Numbered from the stretch's first letter, positions 40,904 through 59,816 are shown. The stretch is 64,000 nucleotides of DNA from an uncultured Alphaproteobacteria bacterium (GCA_902613995.1 CACMJG010000005.1:13542-77541), one strand, 5' to 3'. The notes: generated from the letters alone by a model not told the origin. Made by a program: numbers and translations.

Positions 40904-41782
40904 TTAAATAATAATAAATACCCCGCCTGAGATAAAAATAATTCCAATTAATTTTTGCAATGAGAAATTCTCATCAAAAAATAAACTTCCAAATAAAATC
41001 GCACTAAATTGTCCAATTGCTCTTTTGATCGATTCCATTATAGGAACAAAATTAAATATAATAGCATAGAACTGAGTTATAGTTGCAAATGTACCAATAA
41101 TTACTGTAAAAAAAATTAGATTTAAATGTTTGGTTTTTAGTTTTTGTAAAATTAAAAGTTGTTTCATTGAAATTAAAAACAAAATTAAAAAAGTTGCAAA
41201 AGCTTGAATAAAACCATGGACATTAATTGAACTGTGTTTCAAACACATTTTATCTAAAACGGGAGTAACACTCCAACATAGTGCTACTAATAACATTAAC
41301 TTAGCACTTTGGTTTCTTGTAATGTGAATAACGCTTTTAAATATTTGAGTTATATTAAATGCATTAGAATACAATGATAATGTTCCAAAGATTATAGAAA
41401 AAACACCGAAATATTGGGTTTTAGATAATCCTTCATCTAAAAAAATAAATGAGAATATAGAACTAAATAAAGGAGAAAAAGAGAGAAGGGGTATTGTAAG
41501 GCTAAGATCTGATTCTTTAATCGATTTTAGAAATAATAATGCTGAAAATATTCCTAAAATTATTAAAATTGTGCCTGGAATCAAATATGAAGAAATATTT
41601 ACGTAAAAATTATCTTTTAAGCACCAAATAAAAAAGATTATTATTTGAACAAATGTGAATGACAATAGTAAAACTTTTGAATCAACATATTTTAGCGAAA
41701 GTTTCCTTGTTAAATCGAATACAGCCCAAAAAAAACCTGAAAGTAAGCAAATTAAGATAGAAGACGACAAAATAAATCTCAA
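40904..41782 (-). CDS. EamA/DMT family transporter
   Basis: About 10 TM segments; SDLSLTIPLLSFSP...LDE.LS internal repeat. Confidence 0.85.
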   Translation of the reverse strand: MRFILSSSILICLLSGFFWAVFDLTRKLSLKYVDSKVLLLSFTFVQIIIFFIWCLKDNFYVNISSYLIPGTILIILGIFSALLFLKSIKESDLSLTIPLLSFSPLFSSIFSFIFLDEGLSKTQYFGVFSIIFGTLSLYSNAFNITQIFKSVIHITRNQSAKLMLLVALCWSVTPVLDKMCLKHSSINVHGFIQAFATFLILFLISMKQLLILQKLKTKHLNLIFFTVIIGTFATITQFYAIIFNFVPIMESIKRAIGQFSAILFGSLFFDENFSLQKLIGIIFISGGVFIII

Positions 41783-42001
41783 ATATTATTTATATTTGGT
41801 TTGATTTTTTTTAATACCAATGAAAGTAATAGCCTAAATATATCAAAATAAAAGATTATGGAAACAATTTAGATAAAGATATCATATCAAAGAACTAAAA
41901 CTTTTATAAACTAGTAATTTTGATTTCTAAAAGAATAAAAAAATCTTTGAAAGGAGAGTGAGTTTTAGAGTTTTAAATCTTTTCTGATACTTCTTTAAGA
42001 G

Positions 42002-42793
42002 TTACATTCCTGGCATTCTCATCAAACTGGCACCTACAGAATCTAATTCTTCAGCCATTTGAATAAACTTCACATGCATTTCAAATTTTCTTTGTTGGTC
42101 AATTGTATTCACCATTTCTTCAACCGCATTAACGTTACTTTTTTCTAAATAACCTACAACTATTTTTGCTTGTTGATTTGGTTGAATGTCAATTACCTCA
42201 GTTACACCATTTTCATTGGGTTCAGACTCTATCCTAATGTGACCGTCTAGAGTTTTTTTTAAATTATCATTTTCTCCTGGGGTAAATGTTGCAATTAATC
42301 CAACATTTTGAGGCAATGCATCAGGTTCAGCACCAATTGGTATTATAAAAATTTCTCCTTGGGGGGAAATTGTAATTTCCCTAAATGCTGGTAAAACCAA
42401 AGGTTGTAAACCTCCATCGAGCATTTTATTACCCGCTCCGTCTAAAAGCTCTCCATTTTCGCTTGTCTGAAAATCTCCGCGTCTTGATAATGACGGAGCC
42501 CCACCGTTTTTTGGTTGAATAACAAAATATCCATTGCCATCAATAGCAGCGTCTAAAGGATTTTTCGTAAAATCCATTGTACCTTGTTGAATTGAAAATC
42601 CTCCAACATTTCTTGATGAAACGATTCTTGGTTCAACTCCATTTTGTCTGTTTAGATAAATAGAACCAAAATCTGTAACAATATCCTGCCTAAAACCGGG
42701 CGTGCTTAGGTTGGAGAGATTATGTGATGTTGCAGTCTGATTCTCCATTAGCATTTTCAAACTGTTAAGTGCTGTTTGTGCCATTCTATCCAT
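42002..42793 (-). CDS. flgF: Flagellar basal-body rod protein FlgF
   Basis: MDR...HNLSNLSTPGFRQD, PLDAAIDGNGYF, SRRGDF, LEKSNVNAVEEM; follows flgE. Confidence 0.88.
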   Translation of the reverse strand: MDRMAQTALNSLKMLMENQTATSHNLSNLSTPGFRQDIVTDFGSIYLNRQNGVEPRIVSSRNVGGFSIQQGTMDFTKNPLDAAIDGNGYFVIQPKNGGAPSLSRRGDFQTSENGELLDGAGNKMLDGGLQPLVLPAFREITISPQGEIFIIPIGAEPDALPQNVGLIATFTPGENDNLKKTLDGHIRIESEPNENGVTEVIDIQPNQQAKIVVGYLEKSNVNAVEEMVNTIDQQRKFEMHVKFIQMAEELDSVGASLMRMPGM

Positions 42794-42817: not shown

Positions 42818-45800
42818 TTACATTCTGATGTTCACAATTGCTTGTGTTGTTGCAGCTGTGGTTTCAATTGATTTAGCATTTGCTTGGAAGTTTCTTTGTG
42901 CAGTAATTAAGTTCACAAGCTCTTCAGTAATATCAACGTTTGATCTTTCTAAAGAACCTGAAAGTACTGTTCCAAAACCTTCAGCACCAGCTTCACCAAC
43001 TGTTGCTGTTCCCGATACTGCAGTTTCAACATATGTTGAGTTACCAATTTGTTTTAGACCGTTCTGGTTGTTAAAGTTTGCTAAAACAATTTTACCAAGC
43101 GGATTGTTTTGACCATTCGTATAGTTTGCTCTCACTGTACCTGATGAATCGATTTCAAGACCATCTAATCTACCTGATGTAAAACCATCCTGATTAACTG
43201 TATTCACAGAGAAAGGCTGAGCGAGCTGAGTTGACTTTGTAAAGTCAATATCAAGATCAATACTAAATCCAGCTTCTTGCTTTTCATAATGAACGCCTTG
43301 TTTTGGACTGACAATTCTACCTGATTTATCGAAAGTAAGTTCTCCTTCATCAATGAAAAGAGGGAAGTATCCATCAACAACGTTCGCAGGAGGAGTAGTT
43401 ACTTTATTTCCATTCGCATCAACAAATAAAGCTAAACCTTCTGAGTTGGTTGCTTGTGTTAAATTAAAAATCTGTGGGACAGTTCCAACACCAAGATCAA
43501 CATTGTCGAGACCAAATTTACCTGCTCCTCTAACTTTGATTGTAGAGTCTCTTCCCGTAGTTCCGTTTGTAAAAGTGAAATTATTAGTGTCTGAATTATA
43601 CGATACTGTAATTCCACCACCAACTATCCCAGTTGTTCCTTCAATTTGGTTCATTCTTTCTTGAAGTGCTTCGGCTAGAGTTGTGCCGACATAAAAACCT
43701 TGAGGTATTTCAATAATACCTGGAACACCATTGACTGAGACGTTAAATATGTTTTCGTTATTCTGATTACTCAATCGAAATACTTGAGTTAAGTCTTCTG
43801 TTGCAGAGGCTCCAACGGCCACTGCAGGAAGTGCCGCCAATCCTTTTGCTTCTGTTTTTATTGCATTAGTTTTGGTTTTACCCACACCTAGCAGACCATT
43901 ATCTCCGCCAAAGAAATCTGTTGCATCAGTAACAGAACCATCCGTTGCTGAAAGAAGATATCGACCAACTGCAATATCCGATGCTGTTTGAGCGGTTGTA
44001 ACGCCAATTGCTCCATTTGCAGCAATTGTTTCTCCAGTTGTTCCACTGCTAAATTCAAATGCTTTTAATTCACTGTTATATCCTACTTTAATCCCAAAAC
44101 GTTTATCGTTTAGCTGAATTTCTGCTCCATCTGCAACGAAAGTTGCAGCAGAAAATTTCTCGCCACCTCTTATTAATGTTTCAGTTGTATCATCAGATGT
44201 TGGGATTCCAAGATTATTGGTAGAAGTTGCAGTAGAGGCTCCAAAAATTTTAAAACTGTTAAAGTTACTATTTGTACCTGTTCCTAAAATATTTCTATCA
44301 ATTTCGAATTGCAGTCTTTGGTTCAGAACATCATACGAAACTTCGATAGGAGGATCTTGAACATCAACCCAGTTAGTTGCCATATTTGAGGCTCCTGTAA
44401 TTGTTGAGTCAAGAGACCCTGCGTCACTTCCAAGTCCCAAAACCTGACTGGTATTTATAGATGCGGCAGAACCATTAATATTAAATTCAGCACTATGAAT
44501 TCCAAATATTGGATCACCAACTGAAACACTTCCATGTGCTCTGGCAACAGTTGAATCATCAACCATCTTGTTAGTATATGAATGTTTGTTAGCCGTTCCT
44601 ATTTCTCTCAAAACAACTTTTTTATTACTAAAGTTTACATCTGCACCTTTAAATACATTTTCTGCACCTTGAAAGAAAGCTTCAACACTCGTTGAGAGCT
44701 CGCTATATATCTTTCCATCATTATTCGTAGCAGCAATGTTAAAATCTGCATCTGGAAAATTCATACCAGACGTACTACATTCAACGAAGTATTTATTGCC
44801 TGAATCTTGAGCTGCTCTGATGACTGTAAATTCTCTTCCATTAAAAAAATTAGAATTTGTTGTATCAGTTGTAGAAGCATCAAACAAACCTAATGCTCTT
44901 ATTTTTTCATTTACAGTGAGACCTGGGTCGGATGCACCAAAATAAAATTTTACTGTATTTTCTGATTGATCGTACTCAACTATATTTCCATCATTTCCAG
45001 CTCCCATGGTATCAGCTTCGTCATAAACATGAAGTTGAGGGCTTTTGCCGAAATATGAATGGGTTAAAAACTTTTCTTCATCGGTAATTGCGGTAATTAC
45101 CCCAGAATCATTTGTAGTTGCATTGGCTCTTGTAATTTTAAAAGCCTGATTGTGCTCTAAAATACCTGTCATTGTTCCACCGGTATATTCTGCAAATAAG
45201 CTATTTTGAACACCTATTGATGCAGCATTACTAACAACGTCAGTTGATGCAGTTACTGCATAATTATTTAATGCGTCATTCAATCTAGCCTGTGTATGAG
45301 CTAAAAACTGATCTCTAGTAAAGTCGGGTGATGCACCTGTTAGTGTTATGCCCTCAAGAGTAGAAACATAGGAATCTGTGAGAAGGTCAACACTTATAGG
45401 TGTTGTTAAACCTGTCGATGTTCCATCAGCATTTAGCTTTAGTAAATCAATTGTGAGTGTATCATCAACGTTCTGTACGACCTGTATTTTTTTGTCATCT
45501 CCATATGCTGCATTTATTGCTCTTTGGATTTCTGTAGAGAGTTGTGCTGCGTTATAAGAACCTGGACGAATATCAATATTTACCGGTTGGTCACCATTAT
45601 CGACATTAACAGTCATAAAGTTGGTTCCCCAAAAAATACCTGAACCTGTATTACCACTTTCAACAGTTGATTTAAATTGAACTGGGTCAGTAACAATTGT
45701 AACAGTTTTGTCGCCTTCCTCACCAAAATCAAATCCACTAGATTCACCAGTAACCTTTGCTGGTGTTGAGTCAACTAAAGTCTGAAGATCATCTTGCTTA

Positions 45801-46654
45801 AACAAAGGAGAACCTTTTCCCTCCAAGAAATAGTTATCGTCAGGAACTTTAGTTGTTTGTTGACCAAATCGATCAATAAAAATTGGTTGTTTTGTATCAT
45901 TAACAGCTTTAACAAGATCTGGTTCAATTACAGTATCATTAATAACTAATCGCGTTTCAAACTTATTTGTAGGATCAGCTGCTGAAGCTGCCTGAGTTCT
46001 TATAAAAAAGATTGTAGCAATTGTTGGATTACCTAAATCATCAAAGATTGTTATTGAGGTTGAATTATTGTAAGTGGTTGGATCATTCGGGTTAAATACA
46101 TAACCACTTGAAAATTGCTCATTATCTGTAATTACATCACTTGTCGCGGAGACGTTAACACCCAAATCAATTTGGGTTGTTGCCTTTGGTGTTCCTGATG
46201 TTACTGGGAGCTGCAAAGGAACTGCACTTGTCAAATCTTTTGCCGTTACAGATCCATCGGCGTTAACTGGAAACGTAAGGAGGAACTGACCAGATGAGTC
46301 AGTCACGTACCTGTCATTGTTCACATTAAATGAACCGTTACGAGTATAAACTGTTTGCCCTGATGTAAGCGACGGCTTAAGGGAGAAGAAACCTTGACCA
46401 GAAATTGCTATATCAAGAACATTTAAAGAAGAGGTAATGTTACCCTGAGTAAACTGCTGCTTAACACTTTTAAGAATTGTACCAGAACCAATTGATGATG
46501 AAGCGTTTTGTAATGGTGAAGTTGCAAAAATATCACCAAATTCTGCTCTTGATCTTTTAAAACCAGTTGTATTAACGTTAGCAATGTTATTAGACGTTGC
46601 TGAAATGTCTGACTGTGCTCCGTTAAGTCCGGTAAGTGCTGTATAAAATGACAT
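42818..46654 (-). CDS. flgE: Flagellar hook protein FlgE, giant (1278 aa) with ~860-aa insertion
   Basis: SNNIANVNTTGFK, QFTQGNI, DIAISGQGFF, YTRNGSF; C-terminal QDG..G.L...I..SG...Y.NG and LERSNVDITEELVNLITAQRNFQANAK; flgB-C-D-E-F order. Confidence 0.93.
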   Translation of the reverse strand: MSFYTALTGLNGAQSDISATSNNIANVNTTGFKRSRAEFGDIFATSPLQNASSSIGSGTILKSVKQQFTQGNITSSLNVLDIAISGQGFFSLKPSLTSGQTVYTRNGSFNVNNDRYVTDSSGQFLLTFPVNADGSVTAKDLTSAVPLQLPVTSGTPKATTQIDLGVNVSATSDVITDNEQFSSGYVFNPNDPTTYNNSTSITIFDDLGNPTIATIFFIRTQAASAADPTNKFETRLVINDTVIEPDLVKAVNDTKQPIFIDRFGQQTTKVPDDNYFLEGKGSPLFKQDDLQTLVDSTPAKVTGESSGFDFGEEGDKTVTIVTDPVQFKSTVESGNTGSGIFWGTNFMTVNVDNGDQPVNIDIRPGSYNAAQLSTEIQRAINAAYGDDKKIQVVQNVDDTLTIDLLKLNADGTSTGLTTPISVDLLTDSYVSTLEGITLTGASPDFTRDQFLAHTQARLNDALNNYAVTASTDVVSNAASIGVQNSLFAEYTGGTMTGILEHNQAFKITRANATTNDSGVITAITDEEKFLTHSYFGKSPQLHVYDEADTMGAGNDGNIVEYDQSENTVKFYFGASDPGLTVNEKIRALGLFDASTTDTTNSNFFNGREFTVIRAAQDSGNKYFVECSTSGMNFPDADFNIAATNNDGKIYSELSTSVEAFFQGAENVFKGADVNFSNKKVVLREIGTANKHSYTNKMVDDSTVARAHGSVSVGDPIFGIHSAEFNINGSAASINTSQVLGLGSDAGSLDSTITGASNMATNWVDVQDPPIEVSYDVLNQRLQFEIDRNILGTGTNSNFNSFKIFGASTATSTNNLGIPTSDDTTETLIRGGEKFSAATFVADGAEIQLNDKRFGIKVGYNSELKAFEFSSGTTGETIAANGAIGVTTAQTASDIAVGRYLLSATDGSVTDATDFFGGDNGLLGVGKTKTNAIKTEAKGLAALPAVAVGASATEDLTQVFRLSNQNNENIFNVSVNGVPGIIEIPQGFYVGTTLAEALQERMNQIEGTTGIVGGGITVSYNSDTNNFTFTNGTTGRDSTIKVRGAGKFGLDNVDLGVGTVPQIFNLTQATNSEGLALFVDANGNKVTTPPANVVDGYFPLFIDEGELTFDKSGRIVSPKQGVHYEKQEAGFSIDLDIDFTKSTQLAQPFSVNTVNQDGFTSGRLDGLEIDSSGTVRANYTNGQNNPLGKIVLANFNNQNGLKQIGNSTYVETAVSGTATVGEAGAEGFGTVLSGSLERSNVDITEELVNLITAQRNFQANAKSIETTAATTQAIVNIRM

Positions 46655-46677
46655 ATTATTTCTCCTCTATTGTTATT

Positions 46678-47382
46678 TTATTTGTTTGATTTAAATTTTA
46701 TTGCTTCAGCTGCTGAAATTTCCCCGTAATCTTTAGTTTCTAAAATTACGTCCTCGCTATTTTTTGGAGCAGATGCTGCAATAACTTTGTTGTAAACTGC
46801 AGTATTTAATCCATCTGAGCCTTCAGCATTTCCTGAATACGCTTGAATTGTTAATTGAGTCTTATTCTTTTTTATTTCCTCTGGAATATCAGTCCAACTA
46901 AATCCCACAAGTCCTTTGTCATTTGAACCTAAACTCATTGAATGAATGATTTCACCATTAGAGTTTGCAAATGTAAGCCCAACGTCATTAGAGAACAATG
47001 GTAGATCTACAACACCGTGAATTTCTCCATTATCGTCGGGGCTAGCAACCTGTCCTGGTATTAACACTGAATGCCCAAGAAATTGTGCTGCCGTTGCAAC
47101 TCTGTTAGGTTCTAATTTTGAACCAAGGCTTGTTAAATTATTATTAATTTCCGTTATACCTGTTACTGTAGAAAATTGAGCCATTTGGGCAATAAAATCA
47201 CCGTTGTCCATTGGAGCAAATGGGTCTTGATTTTGCAATTGAGTAGTCATTAGCTTTAAGAAATCTTCTTGTCCAAGAGCAGTTTTTTTATTGCCCTTTG
47301 CAGCCTCTTCTTGAGTCTTTACACCAAGTTTGTTTAAGATATTATTTAACGATTGTTCCGATGTTTTTGATATATCTGGCAT
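46678..47382 (-). CDS. flgD: Flagellar hook capping protein FlgD
   Basis: LGQEDFLKLMTTQLQNQDPFAPMDN..FIAQMAQFS. Confidence 0.96.
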   Translation of the reverse strand: MPDISKTSEQSLNNILNKLGVKTQEEAAKGNKKTALGQEDFLKLMTTQLQNQDPFAPMDNGDFIAQMAQFSTVTGITEINNNLTSLGSKLEPNRVATAAQFLGHSVLIPGQVASPDDNGEIHGVVDLPLFSNDVGLTFANSNGEIIHSMSLGSNDKGLVGFSWTDIPEEIKKNKTQLTIQAYSGNAEGSDGLNTAVYNKVIAASAPKNSEDVILETKDYGEISAAEAIKFKSNK

Positions 47383-47394
47383 TTTATCCCCTAT

Positions 47395-47808
47395 CTATTT
47401 ACCCATACTTGCAGTTTTAAGCATTAATGCTCTAACGGTTGATATTACCTCAACATTATTCTGATATTGTCTTGATGCCTCAAGCATGTCGACGTATTCC
47501 TCTTCGATGTTGACAGGTGCTCTGTAGATAAAACCATCTTGGTCTGCCATTGGATGACCAGGTTTAAATTCTTTTATCGGATCAATATCCATTTTTTGAA
47601 CAGTTACTGCATCAACAGTTGAAATTCCTCTTTTTCTTATAAGATCAAAATACTTAGTTTCAAAGATTGGCTTAACTGGTTTGTAAGCATCCTGAGGACT
47701 TGATGCGATATTATCAGCATTAGCTAAGTTACTTGCAGTAGCATTTAATCTTACTAATTGAGCTCCCATTGCTCTTTGTGCTATGTGGTAAATATTTTTA
47801 ATATCCAT
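47395..47808 (-). CDS. flgC: Flagellar basal-body rod protein FlgC
   Basis: RLNATASNLANAD, PGHPMAD.DG, EYVDMLEASRQYQNNVEV. Confidence 0.95.
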   Translation of the reverse strand: MDIKNIYHIAQRAMGAQLVRLNATASNLANADNIASSPQDAYKPVKPIFETKYFDLIRKRGISTVDAVTVQKMDIDPIKEFKPGHPMADQDGFIYRAPVNIEEEYVDMLEASRQYQNNVEVISTVRALMLKTASMGK

Positions 47809-48197
47809 TATTCACCCCTTATTGCCCCCATTAAACCTCTAACTTTAGAATTTATAAAATCCAAAGTTGTTTGATATCTTACTGCATTCTCAGCAAATTC
47901 CATTTGCTCAACAGCAAGTTCGACTGTATTTCCGTCAACAGATGGATTAACCGATTGTCTGAATTGAACTTTTCCTGGAAGGTTTTTTGAAGTAACGGCT
48001 ATATGACTTTTGTTAGATGTTTTTAAAGGACCAACATTTAGTGATCTAGCTAATTCTACTTCAAATTCGACATCTCGAGCTTTGTAGTTTGGAGTTGCTG
48101 CATTTGCAATGTTTGAAGCAAGAATTTCTTGTTTTTGATTTCTTACTCTTAATGCATTGCTCAATACATTTAATTGTTGTTTAATATTATCTACCAT
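47808..48197 (-). CDS. flgB: Flagellar basal-body rod protein FlgB
   Basis: QEILASNIANAATPNYKARD, DGNTVE...EQ..F..N...YQ. Confidence 0.95.
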   Translation of the reverse strand: MVDNIKQQLNVLSNALRVRNQKQEILASNIANAATPNYKARDVEFEVELARSLNVGPLKTSNKSHIAVTSKNLPGKVQFRQSVNPSVDGNTVELAVEQMEFAENAVRYQTTLDFINSKVRGLMGAIRGE

Positions 48198-48227
48198 TTA
48201 ATAATTTTTCTATTTTGGTTTGGAATT

Positions 48228-48243
48228 TGCAAATTAAATGCCA
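48228..48243 (-). promoter_or_regulatory. sigma-54 -24/-12 promoter for flgBCDEF
   Basis: TGGCATTTAATTTGCA (GG-N10-GC), ending 30 nt before the flgB ATG. Confidence 0.85.
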
Positions 48244-48262
48244 AAAGAAAGGTTTTAAAATT

Positions 48263-49255
48263 ATGGATGAAAAAAACGCTTTTAACACAGACTTAGACCC
48301 TGAGGTTATTAAAATAAGAGATAAAATAATTAGTAAAATCGGAGATAAACCACTTGAAGAGGTAAATTCTATAATTAAGAAATTATTAAATGAAAGTATG
48401 GACGAAGTTACCAGATTAGGAGCTTTGGCTGCGAGATTAAAGATTATAAGATCAAAAATCGATCTTTTGTATGAAAGAAAAGTTGAAATTAAGCCGGAAA
48501 AGCAAGTAAAGAAACCTAAGGAAGAAAAAAAAGAGGAAAAACCCAAAAAGTCAGAGGAAAAATGGATTAGGTTAAAAATGTTAGAAGCCGGGGAGGTGAA
48601 TGGTAAACAAATTGACAAAGGTGTAATACTTGATGTTAAAGAAGAGGATGGAAAAAAACTTGTAGAATCAAAAAAAGCTGAAGTTGTTGAGGAAGTTTCT
48701 GAAGGCGCTTCACCTATACAGAAGTCTGAAGATACTAAAAACGAAAAAGAAATAAAAAATGATAAAAAAGAAAGCTCAGAAACAAGCGAAAAAAGCGATT
48801 CACCATTAAAACAAGATCCTAAAACTGAGGCAGACTCAAATACGAATGAAGAAACTGAACAATTAAAAGATAATTCAGAAGAAGAGTCTAAAGCAAAAAA
48901 TCTTCTTGAAAAACATGAGGACGCAGTTCAAGAAGATGATAAAAATGATGAAGTTGATTTAAAGAATGAAGAAAAACCAGGTGATATTAATAGTGAAAAT
49001 ATAGAGCAAAAATCTGAAACAGATGATCGAGTTGATGCACCGTCTACAAATATAAATGATAAAGATTCAATTTCAGATGAAAATGAAAAAAAACAAAATG
49101 CTTCAAAAATAGATGAAAATAAAGAAAATACCGAAGAGCAGGACATTAAATCAAAATCCGAAAATGAAGAAAATGAGAGTAAAATCGAAGATAAGAAAGA
49201 TTCAACTAACGAAGTAAAAAATGAAGATAAGGATATTGAAAAAGAAATAAAATAG
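48263..49255 (+). CDS. Hypothetical protein: helical N-domain, small beta-domain, long acidic low-complexity tail
   Basis: Open frame in ORF track (48215..49255); ATG at 48263 (MDEKNAF) is the likelier start. Last ~190 aa are E/D/K/N/S-rich. Confidence 0.75.
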   Translation: MDEKNAFNTDLDPEVIKIRDKIISKIGDKPLEEVNSIIKKLLNESMDEVTRLGALAARLKIIRSKIDLLYERKVEIKPEKQVKKPKEEKKEEKPKKSEEKWIRLKMLEAGEVNGKQIDKGVILDVKEEDGKKLVESKKAEVVEEVSEGASPIQKSEDTKNEKEIKNDKKESSETSEKSDSPLKQDPKTEADSNTNEETEQLKDNSEEESKAKNLLEKHEDAVQEDDKNDEVDLKNEEKPGDINSENIEQKSETDDRVDAPSTNINDKDSISDENEKKQNASKIDENKENTEEQDIKSKSENEENESKIEDKKDSTNEVKNEDKDIEKEIK

Positions 49256-53656: not shown

Positions 53657-53672
53657 TGCATAAATTATGCCA
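53657..53672 (-). promoter_or_regulatory. sigma-54 promoter for flgP-flgT-LysM-flgA-flgM
   Basis: TGGCATAATTTATGCA (GG-N10-GC), 35 nt before the flgP ATG, which has an AGGA RBS. Confidence 0.8.
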
Positions 53673-53710: not shown

Positions 53711-53726
53711 TGGCATGTCTCTTGCA
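53711..53726 (+). promoter_or_regulatory. sigma-54 promoter for flhA-flhF-flhG-fliA
   Basis: TGGCATGTCTCTTGCA, close to the TGGCACGNNNNTTGCW consensus. Confidence 0.87.
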
Positions 53727-59800: not shown

Positions 59801-59816
59801 AGCAAATAGTATGCCA
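59801..59816 (-). promoter_or_regulatory. sigma-54 promoter for the FlgE/G-family gene
   Basis: TGGCATACTATTTGCT (GG-N10-GC); predicted +1 falls on the ATG at 59790. Confidence 0.82.

Follow-up and report, generated by a model that had tools for sequence, protein, structure and literature searches.

In a 64,000-nucleotide stretch of DNA from an uncultured alphaproteobacterium (GCA_902613995.1, CACMJG010000005.1:13542-77541; the whole stretch is called the window below), the flagellar hook gene flgE is an intact open reading frame (ORF) on the minus strand that encodes 1278 amino acids (aa). The ordinary hook core is split by an insert of 865 residues, which is predicted to fold confidently as a set of domains, is under purifying selection and, as read from alignments with shorter relatives, is built of layers nested one within another. 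The interpretation preferred here, with a probability of roughly 0.6, is that the conserved inner layers would reinforce the hook, by analogy with Campylobacter, and that the outermost layer, a tip cassette, would be an exposed and fast-changing surface. The size of this FlgE is extreme in comparison with the hooks that have been studied, but normal for an uncharacterised marine family of which the copy in the window is a typical member.

The ORF listing and its translation give a frame without interruption that starts with ATG (46654-46652) and encodes a protein of 136 kDa. Its identity as flgE is established by domain matches. Pfam finds PF00460 (Flg_bb_rod, the N-terminal rod/hook motif) at residues 3-33 (35.7 bits), PF22692 (the FlgE/F/G D1 domain) at 83-127 (42.8 bits), PF07559 (FlgE_D2, 59.5 bits) in two stretches from residue 186 that are split by the insert, and PF06429 (Flg_bbr_C) at 1232-1275 (54.4 bits). 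With the FlgEFG subfamily model TIGR03506 the protein reaches 279 bits, far above the cut-off of 70.25. The cut-offs of the NCBIfam FlgE equivalog models are not reached (NF004238, 392 versus 400 bits; NF004240, 380 versus 472), although NF004238 falls only slightly short and its two halves match, one on each side of the insert. The best matches to the core among PDB sequences (phmmer) are the FlgE chains 9yee and 8z5u, with E values of 1e-69 and 3e-68, and these cover residues 4-221/257 and 1097/1134-1277. The N-terminal part of the core aligns to residues 3-212/243 of these solved chains (434 and 437 aa), and the C-terminal part to 250-434 of 9yee and 273-403 of Salmonella FlgE (6jzt). Both 9yee and 8z5u are presumably FlgE of the Vibrio type. 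Among close orthologues the N-terminal core is 91-99 % identical, falling to 77 % in aa 161-200. A search of the whole genome, which is 89 % complete, found this as the sole FlgE bearing a D2 domain, and the giant gene is probably the structural hook protein of the organism, with a D0/D1/D2 core nearest to the ~435-aa chains 9yee and 8z5u. An earlier note on this DNA had already recognised the intact 1278-aa frame (its strand is minus) and its slot between flgD and flgF, and both observations are upheld.

The position of the insert is given by a FlgE of ordinary size, L120 (421 aa), which has the same N-terminal type and comes from another alphaproteobacterium. Its residues 1-233 align to 1-240 of the window's FlgE and its residues 246-420 to 1106-1276; the insert therefore comprises residues 241-1105 and enters D2 at a single point. 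The earlier note had drawn the core at 1-240 and 1104-1278 with about 860 extra residues inside D2, boundaries that are right to within two residues. It had also described a Thr/Gly/Ser/Asn/Asp-rich insert of beta type. The fold predicted is indeed mostly beta, but it includes several helices, and in composition (T 11, G 10, A 8.5, N 8, D 7.6 and S 7.4 %) the insert differs little from the FlgE core and is not of low complexity.

An AlphaFold2 model of aa 238-1106, built from an alignment of 50 orthologues, has a mean predicted local distance difference test score (pLDDT) of 84.4 and a predicted template modelling score (pTM) of 0.81, with 750 of the 869 residues at 70 or above. Confidence drops only at aa 238-245, 272-289 and 744-755, in two very short loops and over the five residues at the end. 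About eight helices accompany the beta structure. In a longer model of 1196 residues (aa 60-1255) the insert keeps a pLDDT of 85-95, whereas the model of the core is poor (mean pLDDT 71, pTM 0.64).

The predicted domains match nothing known in Pfam or the PDB. Pfam searches with three 300-aa pieces of the insert gave nothing meaningful at E <= 10, and the same database finds only the four core families in 19 orthologues, including forms of ~1540 aa. A profile of the insert alone has no match among PDB sequences at E <= 1, and phmmer of the full protein against the PDB matched the core only. Foldseek of the insert model, the structural check that had been proposed for aa 240-1100, returned no PDB match at E <= 1e-3, and the 50 matches listed include no FlgE chain. 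Lectins, adhesins and immunoglobulin (Ig) family domains are likewise without a significant match in Pfam, the PDB or Foldseek. Significant fold matches of the model come only from BFVD, where two predicted myophage tail-sheath proteins align, one with E 2e-5 over 241 columns and the other with E 4e-4 over 134 columns (root-mean-square deviation 3.9, 19 % identity); these matches are taken as a lead only. By sequence, phmmer finds 396 relatives of the insert among 1.84 billion representative proteins, the C-terminal third being the part most widely shared. One entry of that library, P0140 (2492 aa), is FlgE-like only from residue 1200, matching aa 102-463, 761-919 and 915-1195, and begins with sequence that is not FlgE; either a fusion or an error in gene calling may explain it. 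An intein or mobile element was considered as the source of the insert and rejected on the basis of the lack of such motifs, the in-frame conservation across orders and the host-like G+C content of third codon positions (GC3).

Relatives of intermediate length divide the insert into layers. The 421-aa form lacks all of 241-1105. In two genomes of Pseudomonadota outside the Alphaproteobacteria (G+C 57 %), FlgE proteins of 794 and 997 aa join residues 1-387/392 directly to 849/850-1277; in the 794-aa protein (L122), residues 6-372 align to 1-387 and 390-798 to 849-1277. A 953-aa relative, P0269, aligns through its residues 1-466 to 1-465 and through 478-952 to 768-1277, and thus lacks 466-767. 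Variants of 1539-1547 aa carry 274 additional residues at about aa 742. From the relatives that lack them, the layers are therefore 241-387 with 849-1105 (layer 1), 388-465 with 768-848 (layer 2) and the tip, 466-767 (layer 3). Confidence of the model is low in the linker of the first arm of layer 1 (aa 238-245 and 272-289) and high from ~293, and pLDDT is ~90 over aa 477-700 of layer 3.

The junction between layers 1 and 2 lies inside a small module that resembles the hook IN motif of flagellins (PF07196), judged by eye only: a strand, G-x-Y, a helix ending in ...A-I-N or ...R-M-N, and a hairpin. One such module is formed by aa 355-387 and 849-876, and another by aa 975-1036. In the 794-aa FlgE the module is contiguous, reading ...VDIQL..PEEIAARLANAINKAFGDD, 17 residues and then DDRRYGIDVKYDTAAKQFIIYSGTTGD. 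In the window's FlgE the same module is split by 461 residues, with ...AINAAYGDD ending at aa 387 and DKRFGIKVGYNS..GTTG resuming from aa 850. PF07196 itself has no match in the three 300-aa insert pieces (E <= 10) or in 19 orthologues (E <= 0.01). Self-BLAST of FlgE detected no internal repeats; two short repeated motifs emerged only in profile-profile comparison with hhalign, which pairs 854-876 with 1014-1036 (E about 3e-9) and 360-382 with 981-1003 (E about 1e-6). By this evidence the insert was built up by successive nested insertions in one D2 loop: layer 2 interrupts the IN-motif-like module of layer 1 at the loop that joins its helix to its hairpin, and the relatives of ~1540 aa have added a fourth layer. 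These natural intermediates, each missing exactly one layer, provide an unusually clean record of the gain of outer domains by nested insertion in a self-assembling machine.

The gene is authentic. It is present at 99 % identity in four independent single-cell assemblies and at 97 % in one metagenome-assembled genome, and an isolate has the same architecture on a complete contig. The cluster to which the protein belongs at >= 90 % identity has 182 members. An assembly chimera, which the earlier note had named as a danger, is excluded by these independent single-cell and metagenome assemblies. A recent foreign origin of the insert is likewise ruled out by GC3, which is 0.19-0.20 in every segment of the insert and 0.21-0.25 in the core (0.20-0.24 in housekeeping genes).

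Selection on the insert is purifying, and the tip differs from the rest in its rate of change. Identity to 15 orthologues is 26-63 % in the tip versus 73-90 % in the remainder of the insert, and among relatives the tip has been lost, swapped or enlarged. The ratio of nonsynonymous to synonymous divergence (omega; dN/dS) was computed pairwise against six relatives, the comparison of insert and core that had been suggested at the outset. For close relatives it is 0.01-0.12 in all five regions, and in the tip it rises to ~0.3 at greater distance, all of these values being rough because dS is near saturation (0.8-1.8). At shallow divergence the tip has 4-6 times the dN of the core; omega is nevertheless well under 1 in every region, the tip (0.03-0.3) included.

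Giant FlgE is widespread in marine Alphaproteobacteria. In a collection with one genome per species, 410 of 599 candidate stretches encode a relative, and 76 of the best 80 loci carry orthologues of at least 1200 aa (1227-1547 aa, all but two complete). The carriers include SAR116/Puniceispirillum, the PS1 clade (with the isolate IMCC14465, whose orthologue has 1265 aa), Parvibaculales and Rhodospirillaceae, and also Planktomarina, Lentibacter, Amylibacter, Ascidiaceihabitans and Gemmobacter; across several orders the length stays near 1250-1300 aa. In an even sample of alphaproteobacterial genomes, 224 of 401 have a FlgE D2 domain, and the survey of FlgE lengths that the earlier note had recommended gives frames above 1000 aa in 12 of the ~150 matches listed, most being 410-650 aa. 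Among the genomes inspected with the same N-terminal FlgE type, nine are giant and one is normal. The description 'exceptionally large' is not supported in that form: the protein is longer than any characterised hook, but within this flagellar subtype 1227-1547 aa is the rule. Of the condition that the earlier note had set for refutation, that equally long FlgE be both common and characterised, only the first half holds: such forms are common (the 76 orthologues), but full-text literature searches found no paper that describes giant hook proteins of this family. A second class, the alpha-type FlgE with the N-terminus MSLYGAL..., reaches 745-1114 aa in other Alphaproteobacteria (loci L102, L103, L109-L112 and L114). 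By BLAST, the inserts of this class are not similar to the one described here, and so hook enlargement arose more than once.

The gene lies between flgD and flgF in an operon flgB-C-D-E-F on one strand, with flgB, flgC and flgD upstream and flgF downstream (Table 1), and the order flgD-flgE-flgF recurs in 79-85 of 85 related loci. All three exact TGGCAT-N5-TTGC boxes in the 64-kb window are situated just upstream of flagellar units (flgB, flhA and an flgG-like gene). A scan around the operon for sigma-70 promoters and terminators gave no signal beyond shuffled expectation. Divergent from flgB, at 48215-49255 (+), is a gene for a protein of 346 aa whose long tail is acidic and rich in Lys, Glu and Asp. 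Pfam matches nothing in this protein, and tblastn places it at the same position in 53 of the 85 related loci.

Table 1. Positions, in window numbering, of flgE, its segments, and neighbouring genes and signals
Feature	Position	Strand	Basis or remark
flgE coding sequence, 1278 aa; stop codon 42818-42820	42818-46654	-	ORF and translation; Pfam and NCBIfam FlgE matches
Shine-Dalgarno-like AGAGGAGA	46661-46668	-	6 nucleotides before the flgE ATG; read from sequence
Core N-part, aa 1-240: D0 N-helix, L-stretch, D1, first half of D2	45935-46654	-	alignment to 9yee/8z5u and L120
Layer 1 N-arm, aa 241-387	45494-45934	-	ends in strand-helix half of IN-motif-like module (...VNIDIRPGSYNAAQLSTEIQRAINAAYGDD); collinear in 794-aa FlgE
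Layer 2 N-arm, aa 388-465	45260-45493	-	not in 794-aa form, in 953-aa P0269; pLDDT ~90
Layer 3, variable tip cassette, all-beta, aa 466-767	44354-45259	-	low identity; missing in P0269
Layer 2 C-arm, aa 768-848	44111-44353	-	P0269 478-952 aligns to 768-1277; not in 794-aa form
Layer 1 C-arm, aa 849-1105	43340-44110	-	starts with hairpin half of split IN-like module (DKRFGIKVGYNSELKAFEFSSGTTG); contiguous second copy at aa 975-1036
Core C-part, aa 1106-1278: second half of D2, D1, D0 C-helix	42821-43339	-	alignment to 9yee, 6jzt; Flg_bbr_C
flgF (proximal rod), 263 aa	42002-42793	-	NCBIfam FlgF models; Pfam D1 and Flg_bbr_C
flgD (hook cap), 234 aa, ordinary size	46678-47382	-	Pfam FlgD 3.9e-24; NCBIfam FlgD
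flgC	47395-47808	-	
flgB	47808-48197	-	
Predicted sigma-54-type box TGGCATTTAATTTGC, heads flgBCDEF	48229-48243	-	~32 nucleotides upstream of flgB; exact TGGCAY-N5-TTGC, consensus match only
Predicted sigma-54-type near-match, before FlgP-like gene	53658-53672	-	one mismatch
Predicted sigma-54-type box, upstream of flhA	53711-53725	+	exact consensus match
FlgE/FlgG-like paralogue without D2, 268 aa	58984-59790	-	FlgG TIGR02488 179.8 (cut-off 252.75); FlgE NF004238 204
Predicted sigma-54-type box, upstream of 268-aa flgG-like gene	59802-59816	-	exact consensus match

The wider cluster includes genes for FlgA, FlgM, FlgT, an LPP20/FlgP-like lipoprotein, a LysM protein, FlhA, FlhF, FlhG and FliA, a set that we take to be that of gammaproteobacterial polar flagella. 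Its synteny is retained in SAR116, Paracoccaceae, Parvibaculales and PS1 loci. In those loci an flgG-like gene directly follows flgF. In the window (40904-42793) a gene for an EamA/DMT transporter follows flgF, and flgG-H-I-K-L lie on another contig: the flagellar cluster is split in this lineage.

One other axial protein of the same streamlined genome (1.36 Mb) is giant. FlgK has 1696 aa (contig C3, L101:2758-7848, minus strand), with FlgK_D1 at residues 97-332, Flg_bbr_C at 1653-1692 and ~1300 extra residues between them, in which a motif resembling G-x-x-Y-F-(V/A)-K...F-x-L-A...(I/L)-(T/S)-(I/F)-G occurs three times. The lengths of FlgE and FlgK co-vary, with a Spearman coefficient of 0.89 in 24 genomes that are not phylogenetically independent. 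BLAST similarity between the two inserts does not extend beyond the shared termini, so giant FlgE and FlgK did not grow by sharing domains. FlgL (426 aa, with a weak match to PF07196 at 22.4 bits versus a cut-off of 22.7) and FliD (557 aa) were also identified. The flagellins are minimal to ordinary: 250 aa at L101:34-786, a 254-aa frame at C1:246877-247236 and a 519-aa frame at C1:250570-250968. In this lineage gigantism is limited to FlgE and FlgK; in other giant-FlgE families the flagellins are giant as well (812-1770 aa, for example 1102 and 1594 aa in G392).

The 268-aa paralogue in the window is a further candidate partner. The genome's true FlgG, encoded on another contig, scores 365. 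Four other giant-FlgE genomes have orthologues of the paralogue, 38-43 % identical, at a distance of ~12-13 kb from flgE; in three normal-FlgE genomes there are only FlgG-level matches. This protein may be a partner of giant FlgE, perhaps one that adapts the rod to the giant hook.

A working model can be outlined for the preferred interpretation, in which the inner layers reinforce the hook. FlgE subunits would be exported unfolded and would polymerise through the conserved core, and the layers would stack outward as additional concentric shells, as D3 and D4 do in Campylobacter. If the cross-section scales with subunit mass, the hooks of Salmonella (18 nm) and Campylobacter (28 nm) suggest a width of ~32-35 nm for this one. 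The conserved inner layers would add contacts between subunits and so strengthen and stiffen the hook of a flagellum that appears to be sigma-54-controlled and has genes for FlgT and an FlgP-like protein in its cluster. The fast-changing tip would then be the solvent-exposed surface, and the matching giant FlgK would cap the wide hook and provide the step down in width to the filament, which is made of ordinary flagellins. The earlier note had suggested a thick outer shell, with stiffening, adhesion, or evasion of phages or grazers as possible roles; the data fit a thick shell in layers whose outermost tip is variable, and each of those functions would be a possibility.

Several points weigh against this model. 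The shell geometry, the diameter and the mechanical role are derived by reasoning, with stacking and contacts taken over from Campylobacter, and that analogy is one of architecture only, because the insert has neither fold nor sequence similarity to D3/D4. The small flagellins indicate that a uniformly thick flagellum is not being built. MotY_N, a marker of the T-ring of high-torque Vibrio motors, was not found in the genome, control genomes being equally silent. The shared ancestry of the genomes behind the FlgE-FlgK correlation and the near-saturation of dS also reduce what those two comparisons can contribute.

Three other explanations must be set beside it. The tip and outer layers might mainly be an exchangeable exposed surface, for sticking to particles or hosts or for escape from phages and grazers, with any stiffening a by-product. 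The poor conservation of the tip, its turnover among relatives and its high dN at shallow divergence would all fit such a role, and the BFVD matches (probability 1.00) to tail sheaths, which are surface-decorated, are a weak hint of a shared decoration-type module. Yet tip omega demonstrates no positive selection, the searches for lectin, adhesin and Ig-family domains gave no significant match, and the hook is a tiny share of the flagellar surface. Moreover, ~560 of the 865 inserted residues, those of layers 1 and 2, are conserved like many core segments, which is unexpected for a purely variable surface. This explanation is considered rather unlikely. The layers might also have accumulated by a neutral ratchet: the D2 loop would tolerate insertions, each new domain would offer a new permissive loop, and selection would act only for solubility and folding, to keep export and assembly from being poisoned, with no specific benefit. 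Each step of the series (421, 794, 953, ~1270 and ~1540 aa) is present in some extant genome and hence apparently viable, the unrelated alpha-type class has grown independently with different inserts, flagellins and FlgK share the enlarging tendency, and Salmonella assembles hooks from FlgE with the Campylobacter D3-D4 insert (PMC5069557). However, a streamlined 1.36-Mb genome keeps the ~2.6 kb of insert at omega 0.02-0.1, the length is constant near 1250-1300 aa across several orders, and the co-variation with FlgK together with the co-occurring FlgE/G-like paralogue suggests a co-adapted structure. A purely neutral origin is regarded as improbable.

The long ORF might, finally, be an artefact or not a working hook gene at all (a chimera of assembly, a pseudogene or a paralogue that encodes a surface protein), the real hook being made from, for example, the 268-aa paralogue. 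That D2-less protein does score better on the FlgE than on the FlgG model, and the genome is incomplete. Against this stand the same architecture in independent single-cell and metagenome assemblies and in the isolate contig, the intact frame with its purifying selection and host-like codon-position composition, the canonical operon slot with a ribosome-binding site, and the finding of no other FlgE_D2-bearing gene in the 89 % of the genome that is represented. Such an explanation is hardly credible.

A broader proposal may be put forward tentatively, as a possibility about which we are doubtful. Giant FlgE, the co-varying giant FlgK and the D2-less paralogue might together build a distinct 'armoured' multi-shell hook of new folds, ~32-35 nm across, whose stiffness or flick-buckling threshold and exchangeable tip would be tuned by lineage; the series 421-794-953-~1270-~1540 aa would then represent its stepwise accretion. 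Hook mechanics govern swimming and turning in bacteria with a single polar flagellum, and the insert consists of domains without solved or catalogued relatives. The giant hook protein occurs in some of the commonest heterotrophs of the ocean (SAR116, PS1 and roseobacter relatives), with at least one cultured strain, so that cryo-electron microscopy is within reach. The natural intermediates are ready-made designs for deletion variants.

The Campylobacter/Helicobacter type is the only enlarged hook studied so far, and the present protein is ~1.5 times longer again. Campylobacter jejuni FlgE, with 865 aa, has been called 'one of the longest' (PMC5069557). Its D3 and D4 domains form a nested insert in D2 (D4 within D3), the hook measures 280 versus 180 Angstrom, and there are extra contacts between subunits (PMC5097172, PMC5069557); deletion of D3/D4 impairs motility (PMC5097172). 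FlgE of C. jejuni and of Helicobacter (865 and 718 aa; PDB 5jxl, 5az4 and 5npy; TIGR02489) is like the window's FlgE in having folded domains nested in the middle of D2, and a common working principle, with outward stacking and inter-subunit contacts, would be a reasonable extension of that likeness. The two differ in the size of the insert (865 aa here, about 386 aa in the Campylobacter type) and in the depth of nesting, which is three layers here (four in some relatives) versus two. TIGR02489, the model for the large epsilon FlgE, scores 143.3 bits against a cut-off of 412.85 and matches the termini only, and neither Foldseek nor a profile search against the PDB found homology of the insert to D3/D4 of 5jxl and 5az4. 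The core is of the 9yee/8z5u type, not the epsilon type.

The FlgE chains 9yee and 8z5u have a like core, and in place of the 865 inserted residues they have a short stretch (~residues 243-250 of the chain). That type has the same kind of cluster, with FlgT, an LPP20/FlgP-like lipoprotein, FlhF, FlhG, FliA and sigma-54-type boxes; the host here differs in being a streamlined alphaproteobacterium. Marine Oceanospirillales provide another parallel in their giant flagellins of more than 1000 aa, which form thicker structures (Thomson et al. 2018, PMC6248924). That study concerns the filament, with FlgE used only as a sequence set to tell flagellins apart. In both cases a marine axial protein has grown about threefold in a central variable region between conserved termini, but unlike the Oceanospirillales this lineage has flagellins of 250-519 aa and gigantism in FlgE and FlgK alone. 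A FlgE with outer domains nested in D2 is therefore of a kind already known from Campylobacter and Helicobacter; new is the widespread, apparently undescribed marine family to which this one belongs.

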